From NCBI GenBank assembly GCA_965216565.1, contig OZ244170.1, positions 1,446,422 to 1,510,421 on the forward strand: a DNA stretch of 64,000 bases, read 5' to 3'. The DNA comes from Bythopirellula sp. Its GTDB lineage: Bacteria; Planctomycetota; Planctomycetia; Pirellulales; Lacipirellulaceae. The position numbers and the translations under genes were made by a program. The number at the start of each line of letters is the position of its first letter. Position 1 is the stretch's first letter. The notes below the pieces were generated by a model, which was not told where the DNA came from, did no database searches, and saw only the letters and a program-made list of their open reading frames with translations. Of this stretch, positions 39,578-57,746 are shown in pieces.

Positions 39578-39592
39578 GCAAAGGGTGTGCCG
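39578..39592 (-). promoter_or_regulatory. sigma54 -24/-12 promoter (CGGCAC-N5-TTGC) for the FGase-DUF1704-MscK-GshB operon
   Basis: The minus strand reads CCGGCACACCCTTTGCC. The -12 element is 69 nt upstream of the start at 39509. Confidence 0.6.
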
Positions 39593-39853
39593 GTGACTTT
39601 TGATGAGGATCACGGCTCTTATGGTGCAAGCACACTGGGCCGCTCTGACGCTATGCGTTAAGGCGATATCGATTGGAAACAGCTAGATTGTGAAGGCCAG
39701 ACACATGATGTCGCCACAAGTGCCTTGGTTAATAAGTGCCCACGGTGTCCAATAGCTACCCAGGAAGAATCGAGTTTTGGAGCTGCCCAGGCAAGGTCCG
39801 GTTAAGCGTCTACGCTTTTTTCGTATTTCTAAAAGTGTTTTTTTGTTGTCGCT

Positions 39854-39868
39854 TGGCACATTGTTTGC
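39854..39868 (+). promoter_or_regulatory. sigma54 -24/-12 promoter (perfect TGGCAC-N5-TTGC)
   Basis: TTGGCACATTGTTTGCC, divergent from the promoter at 39578. Confidence 0.75.
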
Positions 39869-39906
39869 CTTTGTTACGTTAGGCAGTGATTAGGGCACTG
39901 TCTGTC

Positions 39907-39998
39907 CGTCACGGTCGCGCGGGTTTCTTCTAGGGTGGGACGCACAATCGAGGAGAACACCTGAGCCTATTGGTGGCTTGGCTTGCGCGACCGTGACG
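39907..39998 (+). promoter_or_regulatory. Structured leader: perfect 14-bp long-range stem enclosing 64 nt
   Basis: CGTCACGGTCGCGC (39907-39920) pairs with GCGCGACCGTGACG (39985-39998). It lies ~27 nt downstream of the predicted sigma54 start site and ~50 nt upstream of the ATG at 40051. Confidence 0.6.
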
Positions 39999-40050
39999 AA
40001 TCGTTGTTCGCCCACTTTCACTGAAGGAGAGCTATAAGCAAGAAAGAAAT

Positions 40051-40422
40051 ATGTCGACCTACCTACAAATCACGGCCAGCAACATCACTCAAAAAGCAAA
40101 GTTCGAAGACGGCACCCGGCTGCCAATCGAACTGTGGGCAATCTGTGATGAGGGCGAAGAGACTTCATGTTTGGCTGGACTGGTGCTCCACCCCAAGACA
40201 AAAAAGTTGGTGCGAGCCGATCATTTGCCCGGTTTTCTGTCGTATCACAGTGATCGGCTTGGGTCGGGATTTCATCGGTTCAGTCGACTGCCCAGTCGGC
40301 GAAACGTGGAAAGGCAGCAACCAAAGAACTCCGGTGCTAAATCTGGCAAGGCCGAACGACCACAGGTTAGACAGATTGGTCAGAAATTAGCCAAGAAAAC
40401 GTTCCTCTCGCAGTCGGCCTAG
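40051..40422 (+). CDS. Hypothetical protein with basic C-terminal tail
   Basis: 123-aa ORF downstream of the sigma54 promoter and leader. Confidence 0.55.
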   Translation: MSTYLQITASNITQKAKFEDGTRLPIELWAICDEGEETSCLAGLVLHPKTKKLVRADHLPGFLSYHSDRLGSGFHRFSRLPSRRNVERQQPKNSGAKSGKAERPQVRQIGQKLAKKTFLSQSA

Positions 40423-40467
40423 CTTGCGAAAGTAATTGAGAAGCTTACAAAGTGCGACTTCTCATTC

Positions 40468-40482
40468 CGGCACACAAACTGC
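40468..40482 (+). promoter_or_regulatory. Weak sigma54-like element (CGGCAC-N5-CTGC) upstream of csrA copy 1
   Basis: CCGGCACACAAACTGCT. GG and GC have correct spacing, with two mismatches at flanking T positions. Confidence 0.3.
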
Positions 40483-40631
40483 TCATCATTGATTGCCGTG
40501 AGGGTAAAAGTTGCCATGCAGGCTTGGTCTGGGCACTAGGGGTTGGTTGACATTCACGGGATGTTGGCTGACCAGCCCTCGCGGTACTTTTTGGCATCAC
40601 GCCGCTTACCCACTTGGAGAGGAGACATGCT

Positions 40632-40853
40632 ATGCTAGCACTTGCGCGGAGGCCTGGAGAATCCATCCACATCGGTGACAACATTACCGTGCAAATCGTA
40701 TCCGTTCGAGGCCAGCGGGTGAAGTTAGCGATTGATGCCCCGCGTGAAATAAGCATCGACCGACACGAAATCTGGCTCCGAAAATTCGCCGGAACGGTGG
40801 TGCTGCCGATAGAGTCAACGAGCGTCGCACCGACGCACTTGAAGCCCCGATGA
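40632..40853 (+). CDS. csrA: Carbon storage regulator CsrA/RsmA family RNA-binding protein, copy 1
   Basis: MLALARRPGESIHIGDNITVQIVSVRGQRVKLAIDAPREISIDRHEIW. GGAGAGGAG lies 8 nt upstream. Confidence 0.9.
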   Translation: MLALARRPGESIHIGDNITVQIVSVRGQRVKLAIDAPREISIDRHEIWLRKFAGTVVLPIESTSVAPTHLKPR

Positions 40854-40926
40854 GTCGCAACGAAATTGCGATAGTTGTGATGGATAATTCAAAGAATCAA
40901 CTGAAGTCGCGTTAGAACTTCTCAAT

Positions 40927-43371
40927 ATGCATCTACCCATCGCAGATTTCCCGATTACTACGGAGCGAGACTTCAACTGGTCTGCCCAGCGTGCTCGTCT
41001 GCTTGGCACGCTGGCAAGCCTTCGCCCTAAGGCCCGCAATGCGTTCTCAAAATCAATTGCCGAAGCAGCTCGAGCGATCATTCCCAAGCCTTTTCGAGGC
41101 AACATCCAGTTCGCCATTGGAGCTAGCCAGCAACAACAGTTCATCGAAGCCACCATCATTGGGCAAGCAACGGACGCTGGACAGCCAAAAGTAGACAAGC
41201 AGGCTCTCGAAAAACTGGTTGACGAAGTGCTAGTCGATTCGAGCAACGCAGATGGCAGCACGATTACGCTGCGAAAACGACTCCCTGACAACTGCCCCTT
41301 ACTAGGCCCGGAAGACGTTACGGAGTGGGGTACTATGCTGGCAACCCGTACCACCGAAGGGGCGTTAGTGCAGGCCCAACACCGATTGCGCGAGGTCCTC
41401 GCCACATCTAGTTCACCGAGTACAAACACCAGAGATGCACAGGTCCATGAACTGCTGGCATTAGTGGCGAGCACCACGGACAATTCAGTCGTCGTGATGG
41501 ATGCGATCGGGCAGGTGGAATGGGTGAATGATAGCTTTATGCGTATGACCGGATATGAGTTAAACGAAATTCAAGGGCAACTGTTTTTTGAGTTATTGAT
41601 TGGTCCAGAAACCGATCAAAGTTCTGCCAGGGATTTACAGTCGGCGATCAAGCTAGGGCATGGGGTGAGCAAGGATGTGCTTCGCTATCGTAAAGATGGT
41701 AAAACTTATTGGGAATTGTTGAGCCTGACTCCCGTGTTTGATAAGAGTGGTTCAGCCAGTCGATGGGTTTCGATTGGGACAGATATTTCCGCCAGGCACG
41801 CAGCGGAAGAGGCTCTCGCACAAGCCAAAGCGACCGCCGAAGCGGCCAGCAATGCCAAAAGCGACTTCTTGGCTAATATGAGCCACGAAATACGTACGCC
41901 CATGAATGCTGTGTTGGGCATGACCGACTTAGCTTTGGGAACAAAGCTCACATCGGAACAGAACGAATATCTTTCTATCGCCAAAGAATCAGCTCAAGCG
42001 TTGATGAGTTTACTGAACGATATTCTTGACCTCTCAAAAATAGAAGCGGGCAAACTCGCGGTTGATCCGGTCCCGTTCGATCTGTCCCGGTTAGTCGAAA
42101 ACACACTCAAACCTTTCGCCAAACAAGCCATCAGCAAAGGCATTCAGTTTCAACATGCCATTTTGGCTGACACGCCCACTCACCTTATTGGAGACGCAAC
42201 TCGAGTCCGGCAGATTCTCATCAATCTGGTTAGCAATGCGGTGAAATTCACGAGTCTGGGGAGCATCGACATCTGTGTGGAATCACAATGGGAATCTGAA
42301 GAAGATGTTTCGCTACATCTTTCCGTCAGCGATACCGGGATTGGCATGCCCAAAGAGACATTGCAGCGGATTTTTGACGCGTTTACTCAAGCGGATAGCT
42401 CCATCACGCGAGAGTATGGCGGTACGGGGCTCGGCTTGACAATCTCCGCTCGACTTGTTGAGCTCATGCGGGGGCGTATTTGGGTGCAAAGCCACGAGGG
42501 AAATGGTTCGATGTTCCACGTCTCGTTGCCGTTTCAAAAGACAGATGAGCACAATGTAAGATCAACTGCGGGCTCCAACGGAATAGTTTCATATCCAGAA
42601 GCCAGCCAGCCCTGTCGAGCACTCAACATACTCGTAGCCGATGACAACCAAGCGAATCGTGCCCTGGCCAAAAAGATACTCGAAAAGCGCGGACATCAAG
42701 TCGCTGTCGTCACCAATGGCAGCGAGGCCTTGGATTACTATCAAGCCCATAATCTGGATGCAGCAATTCTCGATATCCAAATGCCAGAGCTTGACGGCTT
42801 CTCTGTCACAGCCGCCATCCGCCGTGAGGAGTCTACTAAGCAAACTCATTTACCTTTAATCGCCATGACCGCTCATGCCATGCCAGGTGATCGGGAGCGT
42901 TGTCTCCGTGCTGGCTTAGATGCTTATCTCTCCAAACCCATCAACGCCCGCGAACTTTACACGCTGGTTGAAAGCTTGGGGCAGACACAGAGGCACACGC
43001 AGGTGATCACTCAGGCAGAGACTCTCGTGGAGTCGTCCACGCATCCCTTCGCTGCTGCCTTAGCCCGCTTAGAGGGAGATGAAGAACTGCTTCGCGAGCA
43101 GATGCAGTTCTTCCTTGATGAAAGTCCAGATTTGATGGACCGAGTGCTGGCTGCGCTGGATGAAGAAAATCAAGAGCAGGTACGTATCGCCGCCCATCGC
43201 CTCAAAGGATTAGCGGGTACCGTGGATGGGGGTGAGTTATGTATGATTGCCAACCGCATTGAGCAGTCAAGCGCAGCGGGCTCACTGGATGAAGTCACGG
43301 CCGTCATCGACGAACTTGCCTCAGCGCTGACGCGACTTATAGACCATGTCAGCGACTATGTGTCGTCATGA
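40927..43371 (+). CDS. Hybrid sensor histidine kinase (PAS - HisKA - HATPase - receiver - HPt)
   Basis: H-box MSHEIRTPMN, G-boxes DTGIGM and GGTGLGL, receiver ILVADDNQANR...DIQMPELDG...KP, and HPt AAHRLKG. Confidence 0.9.
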   Translation: MHLPIADFPITTERDFNWSAQRARLLGTLASLRPKARNAFSKSIAEAARAIIPKPFRGNIQFAIGASQQQQFIEATIIGQATDAGQPKVDKQALEKLVDEVLVDSSNADGSTITLRKRLPDNCPLLGPEDVTEWGTMLATRTTEGALVQAQHRLREVLATSSSPSTNTRDAQVHELLALVASTTDNSVVVMDAIGQVEWVNDSFMRMTGYELNEIQGQLFFELLIGPETDQSSARDLQSAIKLGHGVSKDVLRYRKDGKTYWELLSLTPVFDKSGSASRWVSIGTDISARHAAEEALAQAKATAEAASNAKSDFLANMSHEIRTPMNAVLGMTDLALGTKLTSEQNEYLSIAKESAQALMSLLNDILDLSKIEAGKLAVDPVPFDLSRLVENTLKPFAKQAISKGIQFQHAILADTPTHLIGDATRVRQILINLVSNAVKFTSLGSIDICVESQWESEEDVSLHLSVSDTGIGMPKETLQRIFDAFTQADSSITREYGGTGLGLTISARLVELMRGRIWVQSHEGNGSMFHVSLPFQKTDEHNVRSTAGSNGIVSYPEASQPCRALNILVADDNQANRALAKKILEKRGHQVAVVTNGSEALDYYQAHNLDAAILDIQMPELDGFSVTAAIRREESTKQTHLPLIAMTAHAMPGDRERCLRAGLDAYLSKPINARELYTLVESLGQTQRHTQVITQAETLVESSTHPFAAALARLEGDEELLREQMQFFLDESPDLMDRVLAALDEENQEQVRIAAHRLKGLAGTVDGGELCMIANRIEQSSAAGSLDEVTAVIDELASALTRLIDHVSDYVSS

Positions 43372-43608
43372 GATAAGTGACTAAGATAGGTCCCTTCTTC
43401 AGCCCAACATAGCTCCAGCCAAGTTGATTTATCACGTGGACGGGCGACGCCTCGAATCCTATGCACTTTGCCATCTCGGCTTCGAGGATGCTTGCGTTTT
43501 TGCATCAGACTTTGGGCGCGGCGGGACTTCTCTCCGTTTTGGTTCATTGAGTTTGGTTCTCCTATTCTGTGGTTCAATGGTTAACCTAAACGCCTTCTCC
43601 AACTCGTA

Positions 43609-43935
43609 TTAGCTTTCAAACTCTGCCTCTCGCTGACACCGAATACAGTAGGTCGCGTAAGGTATGGCTCTCAGGCGAGTTACTGAAATAGCTCGTCCAC
43701 AGGCCTCGCAATGTCCATAGACGCCCTCCCGATACCTCTCTAAGGCATGATCTAGGGCCAGTAGTTCGCGGAACTCAGATTGCAAAATGTTGGCAACGGC
43801 TTCCGCTTCACCCGGCTCGTCCTCGTCATCACCATCGAACTCCAGAGAGTTTAATTCGTAAGCTCGCCAGAGTGCAGACCGCCTCGCTTGTAGCTGGCTG
43901 GCTAGTTTTTCGAGAGTGTGGGTTGCTTTCATCAA
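43609..43935 (-). CDS. DksA/TraR-family C4 zinc-finger protein
   Basis: CEACGRAISVTRLRAIPYATYCIRCQ preceded by a coiled-coil region. Confidence 0.8.
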   Translation of the reverse strand: MMKATHTLEKLASQLQARRSALWRAYELNSLEFDGDDEDEPGEAEAVANILQSEFRELLALDHALERYREGVYGHCEACGRAISVTRLRAIPYATYCIRCQREAEFES

Positions 43936-43995
43936 TATGCCGCCTTGTATGATCGCCAGGCTTCAACGTTCAACCGCCCGACACTAAAGTTGACT

Positions 43996-44010
43996 GCATT
44001 TCTGGTGCCA
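43996..44010 (-). promoter_or_regulatory. sigma54-like promoter (TGGCAC-N5-ATGC) upstream of the DksA/TraR-like gene
   Basis: The minus strand reads TTGGCACCAGAAATGCAG, 61 nt upstream of the ATG at 43935. Confidence 0.5.
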
Positions 44011-44226
44011 ATTCTTGTGCAATGGCCCTCGATAGGTACGCCTGCGATACGCGAAATCGTGCATACCTGTGGGTATTTTGGTAAGCCATGATTGGCTAAG
44101 AGAGTACTAGTCGATGAGCAGAACAAAAGCCGCCCAGAGTGCTCAATGACTGATCACCAGACAAGAGTCGATTAGCTCTATCGCAAGTCGGCAGCAATTG
44201 TCGAGCACTCCAAAGTCTGCGGACTG

Positions 44227-45051
44227 TTAGTTCTCACCACGTCGGTATGCGATCACAGTCAGATCGTCCGGTTTGCAAGGCAGATTGCCGCTAGAGTCAT
44301 CCATCCGCTGATGGACTTCACGAACTATCCGCTGCACACCTTGTTGTAACGGCCCTTTGCGAATGTTTTCGACGATTTCATCCACGGCCAGATTGTCGAA
44401 TAGGCCGTCTGTGGCTATCAGTAGAGTATCGAAGCGTGACAGCGTCAGCGTTGGCCCAATCTCTATACGCATGTCTTCGGCACCGACTACGTTAGAAACT
44501 AGATGTCGATCTTCGTGGTGCATGGCATCGTCGTCGTCCAAGACACCCGCTTCAACCGCTTGGCTCACGGGAGCGTGGGCAACCGTTTGTAGCTTAATTT
44601 TTCCTCGCTGGCCAACGACAAGAATCGAAGAATCGCCAACGTGATAAGGGCGAATGACCCCCTCTTGAATTTCAACCACAGCGAGAGTCGTGGCAGCGCC
44701 AATGCCCAAGGCACGAATTTTTTCGTTCGCGGACTCGATGCCATTGAGAATCGCTGCTCGTAAGACAAGATCATTGTTGGCATGACTGATCACTTCCTTT
44801 TTGATTGCAGTCACGGCAAGCTTCGAGGCTTGTTCGCCCGCTGCACCTCCACCCATGCCATCAGCAACTACCAGCACTCCGCTACTTTCGGTACTGACCA
44901 GCACTGCAGCAGCATCTTCGTTATCAGTTTCCTTATCGGGGCATTTGGAAGAAAAGATGACGGTGATGCCTCTGAGCTGATCCAATACCACTGGCTCAGC
45001 CATGTTTTGCGTCAAATAAAGAGTGCCGTTTCTCGACATCGACTTGCTCAA
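44227..45051 (-). CDS. PP2C-family Ser/Thr phosphatase
   Basis: VVADGMGG, ATDGLFDN. TTG start at 45051 or ATG at 45039. Confidence 0.85.
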   Translation of the reverse strand: MSKSMSRNGTLYLTQNMAEPVVLDQLRGITVIFSSKCPDKETDNEDAAAVLVSTESSGVLVVADGMGGGAAGEQASKLAVTAIKKEVISHANNDLVLRAAILNGIESANEKIRALGIGAATTLAVVEIQEGVIRPYHVGDSSILVVGQRGKIKLQTVAHAPVSQAVEAGVLDDDDAMHHEDRHLVSNVVGAEDMRIEIGPTLTLSRFDTLLIATDGLFDNLAVDEIVENIRKGPLQQGVQRIVREVHQRMDDSSGNLPCKPDDLTVIAYRRGEN

Positions 45052-45058
45052 TCAAGGG

Positions 45059-46387
45059 TTATTTGCCAATCTTCTTGCCGCACCAAGGACAAAAACTCCA
45101 ATACTCGCTTACAACTCCCCAGCCGCATGAATTGCACTTTTCGGTTGAGCCTTCGATCTTCCATTTACGGCCAACCTTGCGATGGCACCAGGGACAATAC
45201 CGCATGAACGCCATGAGTCGTCTGTCCTTGCACTTGCCATTGGTGCAACGAGCGATGTATCGCTTGTCGCTATACCGCCGCGTGCCACTAACCTCGAAAC
45301 CAGGGCCGAAGCACCAAGGACAATAATGCCAGTCGGATTTCAAACCCCGATGACAACGAGGACAACATAGAGGAAAACTCGTTTCCTCATCATGCCGCTC
45401 GCGGTCATCTCCGCACCATGGACAATGTGTCATCAACTCCGAAACCGATCCGCTGCACTGCGAGCAATGACATTTCGTTTCGAGCAGCTTGCCAAATTGA
45501 CGCTGAAACTGTTTCCATTGCACGCTTTTCCAATGGGTTTTCGATTTCAAATCTTTTGTTGCTACTCGGCGGCTAGCATTTTTCTTCACTATGCGTTGTT
45601 TGATGCGATTAAAGGCAGTCAGCAGAGACGTACCACTCGCATAGCGTTTGCGGGGGTTGAGATCCATCGACTTCTGCAAAAGTTTAACATAGTCGGAATG
45701 ACAATAGCTTCTGACTCGTTGAATGCCAGGCGGTGGCCAGTCGAACGGCCATTCGGGCAGGTAACCACCAACCATACGGTACATAATCAACCCGGCGGAA
45801 AAAACGTCCGATCGAAACGATGGCTTGCCCATCGCTTGCTCCGGCGCACAGTACCCGATCGTTCCAGCGCCCGATGCCGTTAGTGTTCGCCAAGTGACCT
45901 TAGCGATGCCAAAATCGGCCAGCATGATCTCACCATCACACAGCAGCAGATTTTCTGGCTTGATGTCGCAGTGTATCACCCGCTGCTCGTGGGCAAACGC
46001 AATCGCTTCTAGCATCTGCTCGGAGTACTCCAAAGCCGTAGCAATCGAGATCCGCGAGCGCAATCGATCAGCAAGCGTCTTTTCCCCGAGGGGATATGCC
46101 AGTACCAACCGACCATCGATCTGGTCAGCACTTTTGAGCGGAAGAATGCGCGGATGTTGCAGGCGTGCTGCCAGTCGTATTTCTTTTCGAAAATCCTCTT
46201 CGGTTTCCGCGTCCAGCACACTGCTGTGCGGTATCTTTAGGGCGACTCGCAATCCTTCCAGCGTATCCATTGCTTGGTAGACTACTGCAAACGCCCCTTC
46301 GCCCAGCCGCTTTTCAATGCGGTATTTTCCAAGGCGGGAACCTACTCTCAAAGCATCATTTCGATTCACGGTTTTCAGGACTTTCAA
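45059..46387 (-). CDS. Ser/Thr protein kinase with four C-terminal zinc-ribbon repeats
   Basis: GEGAFAVV, VALK, HCDIKPENLL, DFGIAK and GYCAPE, then 4x (C..C ... CPWC). Confidence 0.9.
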   Translation of the reverse strand: MKVLKTVNRNDALRVGSRLGKYRIEKRLGEGAFAVVYQAMDTLEGLRVALKIPHSSVLDAETEEDFRKEIRLAARLQHPRILPLKSADQIDGRLVLAYPLGEKTLADRLRSRISIATALEYSEQMLEAIAFAHEQRVIHCDIKPENLLLCDGEIMLADFGIAKVTWRTLTASGAGTIGYCAPEQAMGKPSFRSDVFSAGLIMYRMVGGYLPEWPFDWPPPGIQRVRSYCHSDYVKLLQKSMDLNPRKRYASGTSLLTAFNRIKQRIVKKNASRRVATKDLKSKTHWKSVQWKQFQRQFGKLLETKCHCSQCSGSVSELMTHCPWCGDDRERHDEETSFPLCCPRCHRGLKSDWHYCPWCFGPGFEVSGTRRYSDKRYIARCTNGKCKDRRLMAFMRYCPWCHRKVGRKWKIEGSTEKCNSCGWGVVSEYWSFCPWCGKKIGK

Positions 46388-46438
46388 GTGGCAAGAATAA
46401 GTTCTCTCTCAGCTAGACGGCTGCATTGTCGTGGTGGA

Positions 46439-47896
46439 TCAATCGTCGGCTGCCTCGACAACGCGGTCAATTTTAAGTCCAAGCTTCTGAAGTTTTGTGC
46501 GGAGTGTCGTACGCGTAATCCCCAATATCTTCGCGGCTTCTTGTTGATTGCCTCCCGTATGAGCTAGTACCATCGCAATGATCTTACGCTCAACCTGTTC
46601 AATGACTTGATCGTAAACCTTCTCTGCACCGGCATCCAGCAGCTCCTGGACTGATGTCTCGATCGTATCTTGCTGAGTGGCTGCCGTTTCGGCTGTGGGG
46701 TGCTGAGCCCCTGACAACTCCGGCAGAAAATCGGGTAAGAGCACTTGCCCATGGGTCTGCAAAAGTGCTTGACGGACGACACCTTGCAATTCACGCACAT
46801 TCCCAGGCCAGTTATGCTCTGCCAGCAGCCGCATTGACTCGTCGGTAACTGTTGTGACGTTCGTACCTAAGTCTTCGTTTGCTTGTTGTCGAAAGTAATC
46901 TACCAGCTCCGGCAGATCGTCTCCGCGTTCCCGAAGTGGCGGCAACGAGATCGTATAGCCGTTCAGGCGGTAATACAAATCGCCACGAAAGCGACCCTCG
47001 GCGACCATCTGTTCCAAGTTGCGATTGGTTGCTGCAATCAGTCGCACGTCCGTTTGAATGGTTTCATTACCGCCGACGCGCTCAAAACGTTGTTCTTGTA
47101 ATACTCGCAGCAGTTTGCTTTGCAGAATCGGCGACATGTCACCGATTTCGTCCAGGAATAGCGTTCCTCGGTTGCATTGCTCAAATTTACCAATTCGTTG
47201 GCGATCTGCTCCGGTGAACGATCCCTTTTCGTGCCCGAAAAGTTCACTCTCCAGTAAGGCTTCTGGAATCGCTGCGCAATTCACTGCTAAAAACTGTTCG
47301 CGAGATCGATTGCTGTGTTGGTAAAGTGCACGCGCAATCAATTCCTTACCAGTGCCACTCTCGCCATGAATCAGCACGGTCACGTTATGGTCAGCTACCA
47401 TGCCAATCGCTTTGTAAACCTTCTGCATGGCGTCACATCGCCCCACTAGGGAAGTTGCTCCTTTGGTTCCTTCAGAGCTAACTTCTGGTTTGATTTCTAC
47501 CGGTTCACACATGAGCCGATAGACCTCAAACGCTCGACCAACCACTCGACGGAGTTCGCGCACATCCAGAGGCTTCATTAAGTAATCGAGAGCCCCTAGT
47601 TTCATCGCCTTAATGGCTGTGTCGCTATCGCCCCAAGCGGTAATCACGATAATCGGAGTGCGAGGATTCTGTTGGCGAATTTTTTGAAACACATCTAGCC
47701 CAGAACCATCAGGTAGTACCAGGTCAAGAATGACGGCCCCCGGTTCCCTAGCAGAAATCGCCTCCAGTCCCTCGGCAATAGTGCCGCACGCTTCGACCTC
47801 AAATTCAGTCGATTCGAAGACCCGGCGAAAGAGCTGATGCACAGCCGGTTCGTCGTCAATGACGAGCAAGCGTTGGGAGGGTGTTGTGCTATTCAT
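46439..47896 (-). CDS. sigma54-dependent response regulator (NtrC-family enhancer-binding protein)
   Basis: Receiver [10 protein letters not shown]...DLVLPDG, AAA+ [14 protein letters not shown] (GAFTGA variant) and a C-terminal Fis-type [15 protein letters not shown]. Confidence 0.9.
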
Positions 47897-47986
47897 AGCG
47901 TGGATTGGGGTTTGTGGAGGAGATGGCCAACCCACAGTTTCTCCGTTCAGGTGCTGCCGAGCAAGCGGCATCTTTTCTTTCGGGCT

Positions 47987-48325
47987 CTAGCCTTTACGAT
48001 TGGGGTGCAAAAGACGCCGGAATTCCTGCTGGATGGAGAAAAGCTTATTTGAAGAAACTTCGTAGTCCTCAAGTCTTTCGGTGATACCGGTCAAGACCTC
48101 GACATCTTCAGGGAGACTACCGGTATCTCTGGGGTATTTTCGAAACAAGGCAGCCAATTCAGTGAACTGATCAACAAGATGTCGACGTTGCCTCCCGCTA
48201 CAAGGCATTCCTTCCTCGCAGCAACAGTCGATCAGGTCATCGAGCTGATAAGCAATCGAGCCTTTGAGCACACGAGCACGAGTAGCCGCTGCATCTGAGC
48301 TACTGGGTAGAACGGTTCCATTCAT
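47987..48325 (-). CDS. Small Cys-containing hypothetical protein
   Basis: ORF between the secreted protein gene and the EBP gene, with a CCCEEGMPC motif. It overlaps the upstream gene 3' end. Confidence 0.45.
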   Translation of the reverse strand: MNGTVLPSSSDAAATRARVLKGSIAYQLDDLIDCCCEEGMPCSGRQRRHLVDQFTELAALFRKYPRDTGSLPEDVEVLTGITERLEDYEVSSNKLFSIQQEFRRLLHPNRKG

Positions 48326-48800
48326 AAACACCTCCTAGTTTTTGACCCGTCGGCGGGACGGTTGGATGTTGATATTGGTAGTAAGAGCCATAGTTCATAT
48401 ATCGCGAAGGCCTGGACGCCTCTGGGCGAAGTCCGTAGGGACCATAATCGGACTGTGAGCGATAAGGCGTCCAGGTTGGCTGCGTTGGGTATTTTTTCGC
48501 CCGCAGTAGCTGTTTGGAAGCGTCGTACTCCAGCTGGGGGCGTACCCACAGGTAGTAACGCTCCGCATCGTCATTGTCGAAGGGGTCTCGGCTATCCAGT
48601 AGCAAGTAGGGGCTGACATGGGGTGAAGCGAGCCAGGGCCGCGTAGTGTACACATTTTGATAGACGGTCTGACGCGGATCATCGGACAACGATTGCCGCG
48701 TAGCCTGCCCGAATGCCATCGAACCCACTCGAAGTGCTGCCAAGCTCACAATGAGCCAGAATGCCAACCCTCGCCAGAGATCATCGCGTGTGTAAGTCAT
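48300..48800 (-). CDS. Secreted/anchored Tyr/Pro-rich hypothetical protein
   Basis: Signal-like sequence LAFWLIVSLAALRVGSMAFG. First gene downstream of the minus-strand sigma54 promoter. Confidence 0.55.
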   Translation of the reverse strand: MTYTRDDLWRGLAFWLIVSLAALRVGSMAFGQATRQSLSDDPRQTVYQNVYTTRPWLASPHVSPYLLLDSRDPFDNDDAERYYLWVRPQLEYDASKQLLRAKKYPTQPTWTPYRSQSDYGPYGLRPEASRPSRYMNYGSYYQYQHPTVPPTGQKLGGVYEWNRSTQ

Positions 48801-48846
48801 AGCAACCTCCGATCAACAAGGGACCAAAAACAACAGTTACTGAAAG

Positions 48847-48861
48847 GCAAGTAATGTGCCA
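48847..48861 (-). promoter_or_regulatory. sigma54 -24/-12 promoter (perfect) for the 48800->44227 signalling operon
   Basis: The minus strand reads TTGGCACATTACTTGCC, 47 nt upstream of the start at 48800. Confidence 0.75.
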
Positions 48862-48881
48862 AAAACCAACGACCTATATCG

Positions 48882-48896
48882 TGGCACACCGCTTGC
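48882..48896 (+). promoter_or_regulatory. sigma54 -24/-12 promoter (perfect) for hemerythrin-like gene + mgtE
   Basis: GTGGCACACCGCTTGCT, 32 nt upstream of the ATG at 48928. Confidence 0.75.
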
Positions 48897-48927
48897 TCGC
48901 TGAAGTCACTTCCATCCTACGGCCCTC

Positions 48928-49407
48928 ATGCTAAAGCAATCAAAAATGACAGATATTCAGGCTATCATCGACCAAAATGCCATTGAGTCCGGTGCCCTAG
49001 GCCTTTTGGCGGATGCGATTCGCTCCGCAACTGTCTGGCCACTGCCTCGGCGGCAGCCTGGCCGAAAAGTGGCCACTGTGCGCTATCTTTGTCAGGTGTA
49101 CCGACAAATGTTCGAGCGGGTTCTAGCGATCGAGGGAAACGACGGCTACATGGATGTCGTTAGTGACGCCGATTCTCGCTTCGAAGAGCGACTCGAGAGA
49201 TTTCGGCGAGAACATCATGGCTACCGCGCGGCCTGGCAAGAGATCATGCCCCAATTGGACCGAGTCGTGGCGAGCAACGAGTTCGACTTTGAGCTGATCT
49301 GCGAGCAAATCAATTCTCTGCTAACCCAGATCGACCGTCACTTCCAGCGGGAGTCTGAATTAATATCTCAGTCTTCGTTGCTCGATTTCGGGGATGAAGA
49401 TGACTGA
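48928..49407 (+). CDS. Hemerythrin/HHE-like four-helix protein, paralog of 27875..28339
   Basis: AIEGNDGYMD, FRREHHGYRAAW and IDRHFQRESELI. Confidence 0.6.
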   Translation: MLKQSKMTDIQAIIDQNAIESGALGLLADAIRSATVWPLPRRQPGRKVATVRYLCQVYRQMFERVLAIEGNDGYMDVVSDADSRFEERLERFRREHHGYRAAWQEIMPQLDRVVASNEFDFELICEQINSLLTQIDRHFQRESELISQSSLLDFGDEDD

Positions 49408-49469
49408 ATTACTCCCAGTCATCTATCTCTACATGGCTTAAGGAACATCAATGAGTGAGGAACGCACCG

Positions 49470-50828
49470 ATGTCTGAACCAGCACTGTTACACCAGCTTC
49501 CCGAAGTAGTGCGCAATGGCGATCCTGAGCGGCTAGTAGATTATTTGGCTACGCTCGATGCCCGCTCCATGGCCCGCGAAGTTTGCGAACTCTCAGATGA
49601 CGACCAGGCAGCGATGCTGACGGCACTAGAGCCTGCCGCAGCCGTGGAAATTCTGGATGACATTCCAGAGGTGGAACGGATTGAAGCGGTCAGCAACCTC
49701 GCAGCGGACGTAGCGGCTGCCATTATCCATGAGCTGCCAAGTGACGAGCAAGCCGATGTCATTGGTGCTCTGGACGATGGCGAAGCAGAAGCAATATTGG
49801 CGGCGATGGAGCCTGCAGAGGCCGAGCAACTGGCGGAGTTGGTCGCCTATCCGGCTCATACTGCCGGTGGTTTGATGGCAACCGAAGTGGTAGCGTTTCG
49901 AGAGGGAGCTACCGTTGCGCAAGTGCTGCGCCGTCTGCGTCGAGATGCGTCTCGCTTCCGGAGCCTCGACATACAGTATGCGTATGTCACCGACGAACTC
50001 CGCTCACTAGTTGGCGTGCTCCGGTTTCGTGACTTATTGCTAGCGGATGACAATAGCACCGTGATGGAACTGATGAAACGGCATACGCTCTCGGTGCGTG
50101 CTGACACGAGTTTGGCAGAACTGCAGGGCTTGTTCGATGGACACTCGTTTCTGGGAGTTCCCGTCATTGATGATAGCGGGACACTCCTGGGCGTGGTCAG
50201 CCGCAGTGCAGTCGATGAGGCAATGCAAGATCAAGTTGCCAGCGACTATCGCCGCTCGCTCGGTTTGGTTCAGGAAGAAGTTCGCTCCATGCCAGTGCTG
50301 CACAGGTCACGTTCACGGTTGGCATGGCTGAGTATCAATATCGTGCTCAACGTGCTAGCGGCGAGTATCATTGCCCTCTACCAAGACACGCTTTCGCAAG
50401 TCATTGCTTTGGTGGTGTTCTTGCCTATCATCTCCGACATGAGTGGTTGCAGCGGCAATCAAGCCGTGGCGGTCAGCATGCGAGAGCTGTCTCTAGGGCT
50501 GATTGAGCCCTGGGAGTTGCTGCGTGTGTGGCTTAAAGAAGCTTCCGTAGGTGTATTAAATGGCTTGGCCTTGGGGGGCCTATTGGGCGTCATTGCATGG
50601 GCTTTTGCAGGCAACCTCTGGTTAGGCGCTGTGGTTGGTGTGGCTCTCGCGGCGAACACCTTGATCGCCGTATTGATTGGTGGTGCCCTTCCGTTAATTC
50701 TAAAACAACGTGGAGTAGACCCGGCACTCGCTTCAGGACCAATACTCACAACGGTGACCGATATGGTCGGTTTCTTTCTCGTGCTCAGCCTGGCAACACT
50801 ACTTCTTCCCCTGCTGAGCACTTCTTAA
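49470..50828 (+). CDS. mgtE: MgtE magnesium transporter
   Basis: MgtE N-domain, CBS pair, and TM domain with PIISDMSGCSGNQAVAV. Confidence 0.9.
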   Translation: MSEPALLHQLPEVVRNGDPERLVDYLATLDARSMAREVCELSDDDQAAMLTALEPAAAVEILDDIPEVERIEAVSNLAADVAAAIIHELPSDEQADVIGALDDGEAEAILAAMEPAEAEQLAELVAYPAHTAGGLMATEVVAFREGATVAQVLRRLRRDASRFRSLDIQYAYVTDELRSLVGVLRFRDLLLADDNSTVMELMKRHTLSVRADTSLAELQGLFDGHSFLGVPVIDDSGTLLGVVSRSAVDEAMQDQVASDYRRSLGLVQEEVRSMPVLHRSRSRLAWLSINIVLNVLAASIIALYQDTLSQVIALVVFLPIISDMSGCSGNQAVAVSMRELSLGLIEPWELLRVWLKEASVGVLNGLALGGLLGVIAWAFAGNLWLGAVVGVALAANTLIAVLIGGALPLILKQRGVDPALASGPILTTVTDMVGFFLVLSLATLLLPLLSTS

Positions 50829-51044
50829 CCATGTCAATCGTTTACTGAGCACCTATTGTACGCGAACTGCTTTACGATATTTCAAGATTCTCGTGACTCT
50901 AGTGCTGCGGCGGCTGAAAATGCCCAACAACTGCTTTGGCACATGACTTGTGATCAGTTATCGTTGCTGACGTAGATCCGCCAGCCAGTGCAAACTAAAG
51001 ATTTGTGCAAGAGGGTACCGACCACATTCGTGTAGTTTTGCACG

Positions 51045-52055
51045 TTAAGAGGGAGGGTCTTCGGTTGCTTCTTCAATCGGTGGTGAGACTAAATGTGCCG
51101 GGTCGTTGCCCCCAGCAATAATCGAGGCTGCAACGCCAACGAAGAGTATTCCGCCAATAACTGCCAATGAGACAAGATTTGGAATCGGATAGTGGTGGAC
51201 TAGCATCATCTTTACCCCAACGTAAGCCAGCAAAAAGACAAGACTCATCTTGAGATAGCGAAACTTGTCCATCATACCGGCAACTGCAAAGTAGAGTGAC
51301 CTCAATCCAAGTATGGCAAAGATGTTCGAGGTAAATACGAGAAAGGGGTCACGGGTGATGCTGAATATCGCGGGAATGGAGTCCAAGGCAAACATCACGT
51401 CGGTTGTTTCCACCATGAGTAAAGCCAGAAATGTATGAGTGATGGCTGTCCTACCTTCTGAGTTCTTCGCGAAGAATGAGCCATCCGTGTGTGGAACCGT
51501 TGGATATAGCTTGTGGGCGTACCGAACCAGCCAATTCTTCTCCGGGTTAATGGTCTCATGTCGCGTAATCAACATCTTAACGGCGGATGCAAGTAGGATT
51601 AATCCGAAGATGTAGGCAGACCAATGGAAGCGTTCGATAACCACTGCCCCAATGGTAATCATCACGCCTCGCATGATGACTGCTCCCAAGATTCCCCAGA
51701 AAAGTACGCGGTGCTGGTGTTCGCTCGGGATGCGAAAGAATGAGAAAATCATTGCTATCACAAATATGTTGTCTACAGATAGCGACTTCTCGACAATATA
51801 TCCCGTGAAGAACTGAACGGCGGCTTGTTGACCGGTTAAGTCATGCGATTGCAGGTCCGTCCAGCCAAACCAGTTTTGTCCATAAAGAAAGTAGACAACA
51901 ACGTTGAAGCAAAGCGAAACAGCCACCCAAATACCGGTCCAAGCGAGAGCCTCGCGGACGGAGATCCGATGGGAATTGCGATGAAAAACCCCGAGGTCGA
52001 GAAAGACCATTGCCAACACGAACACAAGGAACAACACCCACACCAGATTCTGCAT
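51045..52055 (-). CDS. TerC/Alx-family integral membrane protein
   Basis: Multi-TM protein with EKSLSVDNIFV and ALDSIPAIF motifs. Confidence 0.85.
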   Translation of the reverse strand: MQNLVWVLFLVFVLAMVFLDLGVFHRNSHRISVREALAWTGIWVAVSLCFNVVVYFLYGQNWFGWTDLQSHDLTGQQAAVQFFTGYIVEKSLSVDNIFVIAMIFSFFRIPSEHQHRVLFWGILGAVIMRGVMITIGAVVIERFHWSAYIFGLILLASAVKMLITRHETINPEKNWLVRYAHKLYPTVPHTDGSFFAKNSEGRTAITHTFLALLMVETTDVMFALDSIPAIFSITRDPFLVFTSNIFAILGLRSLYFAVAGMMDKFRYLKMSLVFLLAYVGVKMMLVHHYPIPNLVSLAVIGGILFVGVAASIIAGGNDPAHLVSPPIEEATEDPPS

Positions 52056-52265
52056 CGATTATCCTTTATCACCTCAATGAGGTTCTCGGCCACGTTGTTC
52101 ACCCGAAAGGTCAACAGACAGGTTTGGGAGAAGGTGACCGCTCCGCAGGTAGCATGCGGCTGACTATGACGATCACATTCGCACAGTAAACTCAGAATCT
52201 ATATCAAAGACACATCGATGAATTACTTTTGATGGCAGAATATGCATGAATGTGTAAGGGACAAA

Positions 52266-53081
52266 TCATGATGCGATGCCATCCGACGTGTTACTCTGCA
52301 CGAAAAACACAACGATCGTAATATCGTCATGCCCTTCATTGGCGAGCGCTTCCTGGGCCAGCAAATCGACTGCTTGCTGCGGCTCGTCTACCTGGCCCAT
52401 GATTTCTAAAATTCTGTCTTCGCCAACGTTGTCTGTCAGCCCGTCGCTAGCGAGCAGATAGCGATCACCGTGATAAACATCCAGGACTCGGATTTCCTCT
52501 TTGTCAGCTTCAAATGTTTTCATTCCGAGAGCGTTAAAGAGCACGTTTCGCATGTGATGCTTACGGGCCTCTTCCGTCGTAATCTTTCCGAGGAACAGCA
52601 TTTGGTCAGGCCAAGTGTCGTCAACTGTCAGCCTCTCAATTGAATTGCCACGCACCAAGTAAGCTCGGCTGTCACCTACCCCAGTGACGTATAAATGATG
52701 GTCCGCAAGCAGAGCTAAAACGACGGTGGTGCTTGCGCCATGAGACTCAGGGTACTGTGCAGCATAGTCCAGGATCAGACAGTTGGCCTGTTCTAAGGCC
52801 GCATGTAATTGGTGTTCGATTTCCGTTGGGTCGATTTCTGTGACAGCTTTACTTAACTCATGCGACAAAACTTCTACAGCAAACAGGCTCGCAAGTTCCC
52901 CCGCAGAGTTACCGGCAATACCATCCGCGACAATAAAGAGGTCAGCGTTTGGAGAAACGTACTGCCGATCTTCGTTAGTATTACGAGTTGTGCCTTGCAG
53001 GGAGCACGCTGACGCAGTAATCAAAAGCCGATCTGCTTGACAGGAATCTCTTAGTTCCAATGGTTCCGATGCAAATCGCAT
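52266..53081 (-). CDS. PP2C-family Ser/Thr phosphatase (second copy)
   Basis: IVADGIAGNSAGELAS, ASDGLTDNV. Lies 77 nt downstream of groEL on the same strand. Confidence 0.85.
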   Translation of the reverse strand: MRFASEPLELRDSCQADRLLITASACSLQGTTRNTNEDRQYVSPNADLFIVADGIAGNSAGELASLFAVEVLSHELSKAVTEIDPTEIEHQLHAALEQANCLILDYAAQYPESHGASTTVVLALLADHHLYVTGVGDSRAYLVRGNSIERLTVDDTWPDQMLFLGKITTEEARKHHMRNVLFNALGMKTFEADKEEIRVLDVYHGDRYLLASDGLTDNVGEDRILEIMGQVDEPQQAVDLLAQEALANEGHDDITIVVFFVQSNTSDGIAS

Positions 53082-53158
53082 AAACGACCCTTTCGGTCCA
53101 ACGATTCAAATCCATCGTCCTAGTAGTCGTGATCCTCATGGAGACGAGACCGCGAGTA

Positions 53159-54733
53159 TTATTTTGGTTTTTCTGCGATCAATGCGTCACTGGTCAGCAG
53201 CAAAGTAGCTACGCTCAGTGCATTCTCCAGCGCTACCCTGGTGACTTTCATCGGATCGATCACTCCAGCTGCCACTAAATCCTCAAACTGATCGGAATAT
53301 GCGTTGTAGCCAAAGGCCCCTTCGCCTTCTGAAACCTTGCCACAAACCACACCGCCATCGCGACCGGCGTTTTCTGCGATCCATTCCAGGGGAGCCTGGC
53401 AGGCTTTCTGGACAATGCGAAAACCGACCTGCTCAGCCTGGATCAGGTCATCAGCCGAGCATGCATTGGCAGCTCGAATCAGAGCAACGCCACCGCCAGG
53501 TAACACCCCCTCTTCCATCGCAGCTCGCGTCGCGTGAATTGCATCGTCGAACCGCATTTTCTTTTCTTTCATCTCACTCTCAGTCGCAGCTCCGACCTCA
53601 ATTTTCGCAACACCACCGGTCAGCTTTGCCAGTCGCTCTTCGAGTTTTTCTTTGTCATAGCTGCTCTTGGTTGTCTCGATCTCTTTGCGGATCTGTGTAC
53701 TGCGAGCACTGATGTCTTCGGTTTTTCCAGCTCCTTCGATGATCGTCGTACCATCTTTGTCGATAACAATCTTCTTAGCACGACCAAGGTCGGTGAGCTT
53801 TACATTTTCCAACTTGGCCCCAAGGCTATCGAACAGGGGCCTCGCGCCGGTAAGGATGGCAAGGTCTTCTAGCATGGCCTTACGACGGTCGCCAAAACCG
53901 GGAGCCTTAACCGCGCAGCACTTCAAGGTTCCACGAAGACAGTTGATTACAAGCGTAGCAAGAGCTTCGCCATCGACGTCCTCTGCGATAATCAAAAGTG
54001 GCTTACTAGCCTTGGCGATTTCTTCCAGGAGCGGAATCAGGTGCTTGGCACTGGAAATTTTTTTCTCGAACACCATGATGTAGGCGTCTTCGAATACGCA
54101 CTCCATTCGCGACTGATCGTTCAAGAAATACGGTGACAAGTACCCCTTGTCGAAACGCATCCCCTCCACCCACTCTACGCAAGTCTGGAGTGACTTCCCC
54201 TCTTCCACAGTAACAACACCATCTTTCCCTACCTTCTCCATCGCTTCGGCTACCACGGTTCCAATCTTCTCATCACCATTGGCAGATACGGTTGCGACCT
54301 TCATCAAGTCATCGTGTCCGTCGATAGGTTCTGTGAGGCTACGCAGCTTCTCGATGATACCTGCCATTGCCAATTCCATCCCTCGTTTCATCGGAAGTGG
54401 GGCAACACCGGCAGCAACGGCGCGAAGCCCTTCCGTGAATATCGCGTCCGCTAGCACTGTTGCGGTCGTGGTACCATCACCTGCGACGTCGTTCGTTTTT
54501 GATGCGACCTCACGAACCATCTGTGCACCAATGTTCTCCAGTGGGTCTTCCAGTTCGATTTCCTTAGCTACAGTCACACCATCACGGGTGACCACGGGTG
54601 AACCATAGCTTTTCTGTAGAACGACATTGCGGCCTCGAGGACCTAGCGTCGTCCGTACTGCACGAGCAAGTTTACCCACGCCACGTTTGATCGCATCGCG
54701 GGCTTCGTCATGAAAGACAATCGTTTTCGACAT
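53159..54733 (-). CDS. groEL: Chaperonin GroEL (Cpn60) paralog without C-terminal GGM repeat
   Basis: [26 protein letters not shown]. The protein ends ...LIAEKPK. Confidence 0.95.
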
Positions 54734-54765
54734 GAGTGAACGCCTTTTCTGTTAAATACCTGTAC

Positions 54766-55092
54766 TTACTCAATCACAGCTAAAATATCGCTTTCGCGAA
54801 TGATCAATCGGTCCTCTTCGTCTAATTTGATTTCGTCCCCTGCATATTCGGTAAAGAGCACCTCGTCGCCTGCTTTGACTTGCATCGGTCCGCGAGAACC
54901 GTCGTCAAGAATCTTGCCATCGCCCACCGCTTCTACAAATCCACGATTGGCTTTCTTTTTTGCATTCTCTGGCAAGACAATACCGCCCCTAGTTTGTTCT
55001 TCAGCGACGACTCGCTTGATGACCACCCGGTTGTCGAGAGGACGTAGCTTTGTTTTCACTCTAACTGTTTGCGATTTCGTTGCGGTCGCCAT
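54766..55092 (-). CDS. groES: Co-chaperonin GroES (Cpn10)
   Basis: LRPLDNRVVIKRV..TRGGIVLPE...GDEVLF..YAG. Confidence 0.95.
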   Translation of the reverse strand: MATATKSQTVRVKTKLRPLDNRVVIKRVVAEEQTRGGIVLPENAKKKANRGFVEAVGDGKILDDGSRGPMQVKAGDEVLFTEYAGDEIKLDEEDRLIIRESDILAVIE

Positions 55093-55140
55093 TGGGGCTC
55101 CTCCGGTCGATAGTTGCTGTTAGCTCGAAGAAGTCTTGAT

Positions 55141-55155
55141 GCAATCGATGTGCCA
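55141..55155 (-). promoter_or_regulatory. sigma54 -24/-12 promoter (perfect) upstream of groES-groEL
   Basis: The minus strand reads TATGGCACATCGATTGCATC, 49 nt upstream of the groES ATG. Confidence 0.7.
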
Positions 55156-55325
55156 TAAGATAAAAAGATTGATACCTGGCGTATTGAAGGCCGGTTTTAT
55201 GTCGCCATTCAAGCAAGTGGCTGAAGATTGACCACAGCGTCCAATTCTCGATCAGCTCGTTCGCTACGAAGAGAGCGCAGACTCGCCATGTCGCGAGTTT
55301 TTCAAGTTGGGTAGCTGAAGAAAAA

Positions 55326-55340
55326 GTGGCACACAAAATG
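55326..55340 (+). promoter_or_regulatory. sigma54-like promoter (TGGCAC-N5-ATGC), divergent from the groES promoter
   Basis: GTGGCACACAAAATGCAG, 90 nt upstream of the small ORF at 55430. Confidence 0.45.
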
Positions 55341-55429
55341 CAGTTCGGTAGAGTCAATGCGTGAGCCACCTCTGGCGGGTAATGACTCGCCAGGTTCACG
55401 CGACTCTCCCAGTGCGAAGGAGCACACCA

Positions 55430-55549
55430 ATGGGCGACAAAGGAAAGGGTGCCAAAGTCGATAAAAAATCGTCTTCTGCCAAGGCACCAAGTGGTAGCAA
55501 GGACACCACCAAACCCGAGTCCGGGAAGCCTTCTGGCAAGAAGGCGTAA
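55430..55549 (+). CDS. 39-aa Lys/Ser-rich mini-protein
   Basis: AAGGAG lies 7 nt upstream of the ATG. Sequence: MGDKGKGAKVDKKSSSAKAPSGSKDTTKPESGKPSGKKA. Confidence 0.45.
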   Translation: MGDKGKGAKVDKKSSSAKAPSGSKDTTKPESGKPSGKKA

Positions 55550-55720
55550 GTCTTGCCCCGAATACCGCCGAGCCGTTGCCATCTCTCGTACGACGGCTCT
55601 GGCGGCGGGTCTTATATTTGAAAATCAATCCTTAGGTCAAATTCAGGCTTTATTGCTGGGGTGCTGAAACCTTCCCTTCTCGTTAAATCGACAGAAGAAG
55701 GGGTTGCAGGACAGGAATTT

Positions 55721-57463: not shown

Positions 57464-57530
57464 TCAATAGACACCTTCGATGACGAGTAGACAGGTGCAG
57501 CTGTCAGACTTCACAAAAGGAATCAAGACC

Positions 57531-57728: not shown

Positions 57729-57729
57729 C

Positions 57730-57746
57730 GGTAGCTTGTAGCTACC
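57730..57746 (+). terminator. 7-bp hairpin immediately after csbD-like gene
   Basis: GGTAGCT, loop TGT, AGCTACC. Confidence 0.35.

Follow-up and report, generated by a model that had tools for sequence, protein, structure and literature searches.

Predicted sigma-54 promoters cluster around an NtrC-type activator and chaperonin, Mg2+-transport and regulatory genes in a Bythopirellula genome

We analyzed a 64,000-nt stretch of contig OZ244170.1 from a Bythopirellula sp. assembly (GCA_965216565.1), referred to here as the window, in which the genes for an NtrC-type enhancer-binding protein, the chaperonins GroES and GroEL, the Mg2+ channel MgtE, a DksA-like factor and CsrA lie among candidate -24/-12 promoters of the sigma-54 type. 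A motif search of both strands for perfect TGGCAC-N5-TTGC found four copies, 39854+, 48847-, 48882+ and 55141- (sites are named by position and strand), and these are the same four that the initial annotation had listed. Dinucleotide-preserving shuffles put the expected number at 0.24, rather than the 0.12 calculated earlier, and none of 100 shuffles reached four or more (Poisson P ~1e-4). Open reading frames (ORFs) were called and annotated with Pfam and NCBIfam, and coding sequence makes up 83.5% of the window. An intergenic position no more than 200 nt upstream of a same-strand start, which 4.9% of all (position, strand) pairs would have, was found for all four perfect sites (P ~6e-6), bearing out the earlier claim that each is intergenic and faces a start codon. 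Taken as a whole, the class with at most one mismatch showed no enrichment (10 matches where 5.8 were expected); of its six one-mismatch members, three were intergenic and correctly oriented by the same test (P = 0.002).

With the near-matches the candidates total nine, all within 39.5–55.4 kb (Table 1). The initial annotation had correctly listed 39578-, 43996- and 40468+ among these, had placed 55327+ at 55326 and had overlooked 50937+. Eight of the nine have a same-strand start 46–182 nt downstream, the exception being 50937+, which has no annotated downstream gene. The GG and GC doublets, ten bases apart, are kept in the four perfect sites and four near-matches, while 50937+ keeps GG and has GT at -12. 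An A directly follows the hexamer in seven of the eight TGGCAC/CGGCAC sites, and the promoters 39854+ and 48847- are identical at 18 of 20 positions. Six sites form three divergent pairs, as had been proposed, with 261 bp (pair A, 39578-/39854+), 20 bp (pair B, 48847-/48882+) and 171 bp (pair C, 55141-/55327+) between their elements. The density of perfect sites is high even by comparison with 80 planctomycete loci flanking activator genes, from which 0.47 would be expected in 15.3 kb (P = 0.0014). The enrichment had been described as window-wide and proved to be local: the first 39 kb held no credible sigma-54-type site, and looser searches before csrA2, hyp171, EI, GshB, CorA, speD, MscK1, TerC and the second PP2C gene gave nothing credible. 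A simple sigma-70 consensus scan of the intergenic regions around the sites had a sole match, at 50936-50964, which overlaps the 50937+ site.

Table 1. Candidate sigma-54-type sites, genes and other features of the window, with Mg2+ transporter loci of related genomes (L numbers)
Feature	Position	Strand	Sequence	Remarks
MscK-like channel	33205-36696	-		FGase-QEGLA-MscK operon
QEGLA/TIGR02421 protein	36701-38629	-		FGase-QEGLA-MscK operon
FGase	38688-39488	-		FGase-QEGLA-MscK operon
Site 39578- (pair A)	39578..39592	-	CGGCACACCCTTTGC	One mismatch (CGGCAC); heads the FGase operon
Candidate enhancer dyad, pair A	39735..39753		AGTGCCCACGGTGTCCAAT	Resembles the pair C dyad; weak; ~127-145 bp 5' of the start predicted for 39854+
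Site 39854+ (pair A)	39854..39868	+	TGGCACATTGTTTGC	Perfect; 182 nt to hyp123 start 40051
hyp123	40051-40422	+		123-aa protein of unknown function; served by 39854+
Site 40468+	40468..40482	+	CGGCACACAAACTGC	Weak, two mismatches; 149 nt upstream of csrA
csrA	40632-40853	+		Pfam CsrA, E = 5.5e-21; without an entry in the earlier list
Hybrid histidine kinase	40927-43371	+		Soluble PAS-HisKA-HATPase-REC-Hpt; 73-nt gap after csrA
DksA/TraR-type zinc-finger gene	43609-43932	-		Served by 43996-
Site 43996-	43996..44010	-	TGGCACCAGAAATGC	Near-match; 63 nt upstream of the dksA-like gene
PP2C	44227-45051	-		Activator operon
Ser/Thr kinase	45059-46387	-		Activator operon
NtrC-type enhancer-binding protein (activator)	46439-47971	-		Activator operon; receiver, sigma-54 interaction AAA+, Fis-type helix-turn-helix
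hyp114	47987-48331	-		Activator operon
hyp166	48300-48800	-		Activator operon
Site 48847- (pair B)	48847..48861	-	TGGCACATTACTTGC	Perfect; 46 nt to start 48800; heads the activator operon
Site 48882+ (pair B)	48882..48896	+	TGGCACACCGCTTGC	Perfect; back-to-back with 48847-; heads the four-helix gene and MgtE
Four-helix protein gene	48946-49407	+		153 aa; weak hemerythrin/HHE similarity
MgtE	49455-50828	+		After the four-helix gene, under 48882+
Site 50937+	50937..50951	+	TGGCACATGACTTGT	Near-match; convergent mgtE/terC gap; no gene downstream
TerC	51045-52055	-		After groEL on the same strand; without its own site
PP2C	52266-53081	-		After groEL on the same strand; without its own site
groEL	53159-54733	-		Served by 55141-
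groES	54766-55092	-		Served by 55141-
Site 55141- (pair C)	55141..55155	-	TGGCACATCGATTGC	Perfect; 48 nt to groES start 55092
Central footprint, pair C (38 bp)	55217..55254		ATTGACCACAGCGTCCAAT (dyad, 55227-55245)	79% identity to L201
Site 55327+ (pair C)	55327..55341	+	TGGCACACAAAATGC	Near-match; 88-nt leader, then small ORF
Lys-rich ORF	55430-55549	+		39 aa; followed by a terminator-like hairpin, 55595-55611
Mg2+ transporter locus, window	48946-50828
Mg2+ transporter locus, L001	1327-3265
Mg2+ transporter locus, L206	14856-16267
Mg2+ transporter locus, L002	3642-5914
Mg2+ transporter locus, L005	6381-7992
Group II intron fragment	720-851	-		Element 1-23541
ParA	4784-5629			Element 1-23541
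ParB	5629-6534			Element 1-23541
Type IV coupling-protein-like	17525-20332			Element 1-23541
MT-A70 methylase	21330-22415			Element 1-23541
DUF6876, DUF1580, several Ser/Thr kinases				Element 1-23541

Conservation across genomes is the main evidence that these sites would function as promoters. For eight of the nine, one or more related planctomycete loci have a counterpart at an orthologous position, 39854+ recurring only as a two-mismatch version (in L206), and most sites are kept although the surrounding intergenic DNA has diverged. One comparison is with a Planctomycetota metagenome-assembled genome, L001, whose activator is 73% identical and which keeps five of the nine sites within 8.4 kb, and L206 is an orthologous locus with GshB, the Ser/Thr kinase, PP2C, a hyp123 homolog, the kinase, the activator, the four-helix protein and MgtE. 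Sites before the dksA-like gene, csrA and FGase and the site after mgtE are seen again among L001, L003 and L005, and the CGGCAC variant also stands at conserved positions in L001 and in a groES locus, L201. In L001, L002, L003, L005 and L206 the activator travels with sigma-54 sites and with a gene set made up of the small four-helix protein, MgtE or CorA, Ser/Thr kinase, PP2C, DksA-like factor, csrA, hybrid kinase and FGase/QEGLA/GshB. Judged from motif, placement and recurrence, the four perfect sites are very probably real promoters, and the conserved near-matches are probably so too, if with less assurance.

Pair B would tie the activator to Mg2+ transport. Its minus-strand site heads an operon of five genes separated by gaps of at most 51 nt, in which the Ser/Thr kinase carries zinc ribbons. 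For 48882+, a conserved ATG at 48946 (49 nt away) is a more probable start than 48928 (31 nt away); the start distances reported initially were broadly right apart from this one. The spacing of the two elements is nearly constant (20 bp in the window, 21 bp in L001, 20 bp in L206), while the sequence of the spacer is unconserved. The L001 elements are TGGCACACTGGTTGC and CGGCACGCTACTTGC, the latter being the counterpart of 48847- with a 44-nt leader, and the L001 leaders are 44–47 nt as in the window; those of L206 are TGGCATACGGATTGC, which corresponds to 48847-, and TGGAATACAATTTGC. Leaders measure 44–50 nt on the four-helix side and in L001, and 86 nt on the operon side in L206, and the predicted transcription starts of the pair are ~73 bp apart. 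The symmetry of pair B is confined to consensus positions, as the N5 bases (GTAAT vs GCGGT, same strand) and the spacer are not complementary.

In five genomes a Mg2+ transporter under a sigma-54-type site neighbours a member of this activator family; the transporter is CorA in L002 and L005 and MgtE in the other three, and is usually preceded by the 153-aa four-helix protein, as is CorA in L002. The structure model of the four-helix protein (pLDDT 84) matched only generic helical bundles in the PDB (E > 0.1), and a true di-iron hemerythrin identity is doubtful since only two His are invariant. The window holds a further CorA at 29558-30739. A metagenome scan for perfect back-to-back pairs with 12–30 bp spacers gave 120 rows, in which spacer lengths peaked at 20, mainly owing to a marine phage-like palindromic repeat family; as no flanking ORF matched a window protein, the scan is uninformative on this locus. 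The marine contigs concerned (L084, L098, L142, L155, L181, L187 and others, GC ~0.45) carry repeated palindromes with the pattern GCAAGACTCGTGCCAAC-N-GTTGGCACGAATGTTGC, whose TGGCAC arms are exactly 20 bp apart, in several copies on some contigs, and are unrelated to the locus described here.

Pair C separates groES-groEL from a small Lys-rich ORF. Among the related groES loci fetched, L201, L202, L204 and L205 are independent (L203 duplicates L202), and all four have a sigma-54-type site upstream of groES, which is perfect in L202, has one mismatch each in L204 and L205, and in L201 reads CGGCACATCGGTTGC. L201 is the closest of these (GroES 75% identical), and its site lies 48 nt from the groES ATG, exactly as in the window; divergent from groES it carries TGGCACATGAAGTGC with the same small Lys-rich ORF. 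Between the window and L201 the promoter elements of pair C are 80–87% identical and the small ORF with its leader is 82% identical at the nucleotide level, and the central footprint 79%, against 34–43% for the other intergenic DNA. The 38-bp central footprint lies ~88–125 bp from the predicted groES start and 99–136 bp from the small-ORF start. The Lys-rich ORF with its leader (55342-55549; L201 1202-1366, minus strand) is thus 82% identical in nucleotides, although at the protein level the GroES encoded next to it reaches only 75%. A perfect sigma-54 site also precedes a Lys/Ala-rich, histone-H1-like ORF in L020 (3786-4000, plus strand). An exact-sequence look-up of the window GroES returned no record.

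At pair A, 39578- heads the FGase operon, in which FGase itself probably starts at a GTG at 39488. The FGase ortholog of L003 has the perfect site TGGCACAGTCATTGC just upstream, divergently paired with a near-match. On the other side of the pair, the hyp123 leader is strongly structured (39880-39998; -68 kcal/mol, fold z = -3.7) and contains a perfect 14-bp stem in which 39907-39920 pairs with 39985-39998. The L206 homolog of hyp123 (P0122) has TGGCATTGTTTTTGC, with two mismatches, 155 nt upstream, and the arms of the leader stem are conserved; the leader may be a regulatory RNA element. Within 12 kb the minus strand encodes two MscK-like mechanosensitive channels, paralogs of ~1170 aa each, at 24261-27788 and at 33205-36696, the second being that of the FGase-QEGLA operon.

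Downstream of hyp123, the weak site 40468+ faces csrA and not directly the hybrid kinase, which comes after csrA. In L001 the equivalent place is occupied by CGGCACGGAAACTGC. The fetched related loci contain five csrA-like genes; in three of these the 400 nt upstream include a site with no more than one mismatch, and a fourth (that of L001) has a two-mismatch site. A GAGGG...CCCTCG stem in the 149-nt csrA leader is conserved in the window, L001 and L206. A second csrA paralog, likewise absent from the earlier target list, lies at 56667-56900 on the plus strand (Pfam CsrA, E = 1e-22), and of the two only csrA at 40632-40853 has a sigma-54-like site. The DksA-like gene has orthologs with the same kind of site in L001 (TGGCACACCGTGTGC at 6042+) and in L003 (TGGCACTGCAGGTGC at 8978+).

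The remaining site, 50937+, follows mgtE. L001 has the perfect TGGCACACAGTTTGC at the equivalent place, and a non-coding segment of ~30 nt 3' of the site (~50962-50990, in the stretch 50952-50990), ATCGTyGCTGACGyAG..CCGCCAGCC, is the same in L001 (1158-1190, minus strand); the genes farther downstream differ between the two. The segment after 50937+ folded no better than shuffles (z = -0.1), and Rfam searches at gathering and permissive thresholds found no known RNA for this element, the hyp123 leader or the csrA leader. The site may be the source of a short RNA, or what is left of an ancestral operon promoter that lost contact with its genes when the terC-groESL block was inserted. In the window a CsbD-like stress protein and a phosphotransferase system enzyme I (57480-59619, plus strand) come after the second csrA and a 188-aa protein. 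As the L001 homologs of the 188-aa protein and enzyme I stand directly after the post-mgtE site, the terC-groESL block may be an insertion in the lineage of the window. The initial annotation had been right to name groES-groEL, MgtE, the DksA-like factor and the activator's own operon as targets; it had overlooked csrA, the small Lys-rich ORF and the conserved non-coding element, and its putative ligase, which is GshB-like, lies outside the FGase operon headed by 39578-.

Far to the left of the cluster, 1-23541 looks like a probable integrated mobile or conjugative element, without a tRNA or sigma-54 sites (contents in Table 1).

The activator matched the Pfam models Response_reg (9e-29), Sigma54_activat (3e-73) and HTH_8 (1e-15), and its translation contains the Walker A sequence GESGTGKE and an intact sigma-54 contact loop, GSFTGA. 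It scored below the equivalog cut-offs for NtrC (TIGR01818, 482 bits vs 558.6), ZraR (367 vs 760) and AtoC (444 vs 714), and is therefore a family member rather than a named ortholog. Its closest relatives among the matches listed are all Planctomycetota, mostly Pirellulales, and at least 577 relatives were found among paralogous planctomycete NtrC-type activators. The L206 activator (12783-14233, minus strand) was divided by gene calling into a receiver of 105 aa and an AAA+-HTH protein of 355 aa, owing to an assembly frameshift or because it is naturally split.

Taken together, motif, placement, conservation and the neighbouring activator suggest that genuine sigma-54 promoters cluster in the 39.5–55.4 kb region and make it a hub for stress and Mg2+ homeostasis, which we consider the probable explanation. 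In the working model that we infer, including its sigma-54 dependence in vivo, its assignment of activator to promoters, its kinase partner and its inducing signal, sigma-54 RNA polymerase would wait at each site in a closed complex and would fire only upon ATP hydrolysis by an AAA+ enhancer-binding protein. A histidine kinase, for which the soluble PAS hybrid kinase encoded after csrA is the most plausible candidate, would phosphorylate the local activator. The activator would drive pair B, raising expression of its own operon (two small proteins, activator, Ser/Thr kinase and PP2C) by positive autoregulation and inducing the four-helix protein and the Mg2+ channel. The other promoters would bring groES-groEL, the Lys-rich protein, the DksA-like factor, CsrA with the kinase, the FGase-QEGLA-MscK operon and the 123-aa protein under sigma-54, and these, served by the same or other activators, would add up to a layered stress and ion-homeostasis response. 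We lean, with some reserve, towards the local activator autoregulating its own operon and controlling the Mg2+ channel operon through pair B; this is the likeliest assignment because the activator is constantly linked with pair B in three genomes, and with the same partner genes in two more.

Several observations weigh against the hub. Five of the nine sites depart from consensus, and 50937+, which has no downstream gene, reads GT where the -12 element should read GC. No rpoN is among the genes of the 64-kb window by Pfam scans; we infer its presence in the genome from the sigma-54-specific activator and from Rhodopirellula baltica, which has rpoN (RB6491; PMC2754498). The kinase lies 5 kb from the activator in another operon, so that we only assume the two to be partners. 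The promoters of pair B are too close together for an enhancer between them, and the usual looping geometry is thus not obviously applicable to it; as the spacer is unconserved, the enhancer would have to be inside the transcribed flanks, or else the activator would act without a nearby site. A strict dyad search of 21 promoter regions (from the window, L001, L002, L003, L005 and L012) found nothing common to unrelated promoters. The intergenic regions of pairs A and C share six 8-mers, with a P of only ~0.02–0.03 in shuffles and real-sequence controls, and the candidate dyad is not significant window-wide (5 matches with at most one mismatch, 2.2 expected).

A footprint is visible in pair C and a related element in pair A, where the two promoters, 171 and 261 bp apart, have the classical layout; none is visible for pair B. 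The dyad of the pair C footprint is the best candidate for a shared enhancer, statistically weak and without a link to pair B. The 17-mer TGNCCACNNNGNNCAAT and the dyad ATTGNNC-N5-GNNCAAT were tried and set aside: exact copies are limited to pairs A and C and to L201, and one-mismatch counts are near chance. Copies in the four-helix gene (window 49070, L001, L206) reflect the conserved peptide VATVRY, because third codon positions vary.

The earlier proposal of a local sigma-54 stress regulon therefore holds in part: the targets are stress and homeostasis genes, the sites are conserved and promoter-like and the activator lies in a target operon, while a single regulon under the local activator is unproven, with no shared enhancer in the 21 regions. 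The promoters could instead be real and belong to several regulons whose activators lie elsewhere, their proximity reflecting a clustering of stress and regulatory genes, with the local activator controlling at most pair B; to this possibility we give a little less than an even chance. Besides the missing common enhancer, with a candidate element common only to pairs A and C, the abundance of paralogous NtrC-type relatives in planctomycetes favours it, as do target genes that are arranged differently elsewhere, the groES loci L202, L204 and L205 having no activator gene in their 2.5-kb flanks. On the other hand, the same target families repeatedly accompany activator orthologs in five related loci, and the likeness of 39854+ to 48847- and the A shared after the hexamer also speak against it.

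It is unlikely, in our judgement, that only the four perfect sites are functional and that 39578-, 40468+, 43996-, 50937+ and 55327+ are chance matches or decayed remnants. The unenriched one-mismatch class, the two mismatches of 40468+, and a 50937+ that lacks the invariant GC, faces a convergent gene and precedes an element folding no better than shuffles all fit such an account. Yet each near-match recurs at an orthologous position (39578- in L003, where it is perfect; 40468+ in L001; 43996- in L001 and L003; 50937+ in L001, also perfect; 55327+ in L201), and half of the one-mismatch sites are intergenic and correctly oriented. Equally improbable is a bolder reading of the hub in which pair B would be a single bidirectional unit, its two closed complexes adjacent, without an intervening enhancer, and served by one autoregulated activator acting from transcribed regions or from solution, and in which the 16-kb island (activator, hybrid kinase, Ser/Thr kinase and PP2C, DksA-like factor, CsrA, small RNA-like element, GroES/GroEL, MgtE or CorA) would be a master Mg2+ and general-stress switch of the Pirellulales, in the role that sigma-32, sigma-S or PhoPQ have in proteobacteria. 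That the motif pairs are arms of palindromic repeats or binding sites of another protein is very improbable indeed: the sequence searched with for pair B has the form of an inverted repeat and returned mostly the marine palindromic family with its 20-bp spacing, but the symmetry of pair B stops at the consensus positions, the other sites are not palindromic, the elements keep fixed distances to start codons and are conserved separately, and a dedicated sigma-54 activator is encoded alongside.

Divergent sigma-54 promoters under one NtrC-type activator, one of them heading the activator's own operon, are found in the stress-tied zraP/zraSR system of E. coli, and in this system and in orp of Desulfovibrio vulgaris the activator binding sites lie between the two promoters. 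The orp operons are described as a divergent sigma-54 pair sharing one activator (PMC3897727, PMC8359166). The Bythopirellula locus resembles both systems in having two divergent sigma-54-type promoters per intergenic region, one of which (in pair B) heads the activator operon. A layout with sites between the promoters would fit pairs A and C, whereas pair B has only 20 bp, unconserved, between its -24 elements. Unlike that of ZraSR, the activator operon here has a Ser/Thr kinase and PP2C and no histidine kinase.

By phylogeny the closest experimentally studied system, also in the Planctomycetes-Verrucomicrobia-Chlamydiae group and also with an NtrC-type two-component activator, is AtoC (CtcC) of Chlamydia trachomatis. 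The chlamydial activator is not known to have a DNA-binding domain, unlike the one described here with its HTH_8 domain. The targets of chlamydial sigma-54 and AtoC include hrcA-grpE-dnaK, as reported in PMC8762339 with reference to Soules et al. 2020 (PMC7482065), and are mostly membrane and type III secretion proteins, unlike those of this locus. In Bacteroidota groES/grpE are transcribed from sigma-54 promoters (PMC12316311); this is another phylum, with no described link to a neighbouring activator, to a Mg2+ transporter or to a small ORF on the divergent side.

A 2025 in-silico position-matrix survey found sigma-54 promoter enrichment in Planctomycetia before GroEL/GroES, DnaK-system, MscS, CsrA, NtrC-type and Usp genes (PMC12316311), the same promoter class before the same gene families as at this locus, and among earlier work it cites a prediction of csrA sigma-54 promoters in Pirellula sp. 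strain 1. As the survey is statistical, by COG and class, and makes no mention of magnesium, MgtE or divergent arrangements, this locus, its back-to-back geometry, the DksA-like gene and the Lys-rich gene are presumably not described in it. The promoter pattern of the locus has thus already been predicted for the phylum, and ours is a sound annotation result and not a new principle. For certain details we could not find a description in the literature: the fixed 20–21 bp back-to-back layout, MgtE or CorA beside the activator, the DksA-like and Lys-rich targets, and the Ser/Thr kinase-PP2C pair in the activator operon.

We know of no experimentally defined sigma-54 regulon in planctomycetes, and this locus offers a compact and conserved test bed, with nine candidate promoters, a likely activator and two global post-initiation regulators (the DksA-like factor and CsrA) in 16 kb. 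If the proposed hub is real, two sigma-54 promoters can operate back-to-back at a fixed 20 bp, which makes the location of the enhancer the question to ask; the sigma-54 system of these bacteria would be wired into Ser/Thr phosphorylation, and the chaperonin and Mg2+-uptake genes of the phylum would be enhancer-dependent rather than controlled by sigma-32 or PhoP.

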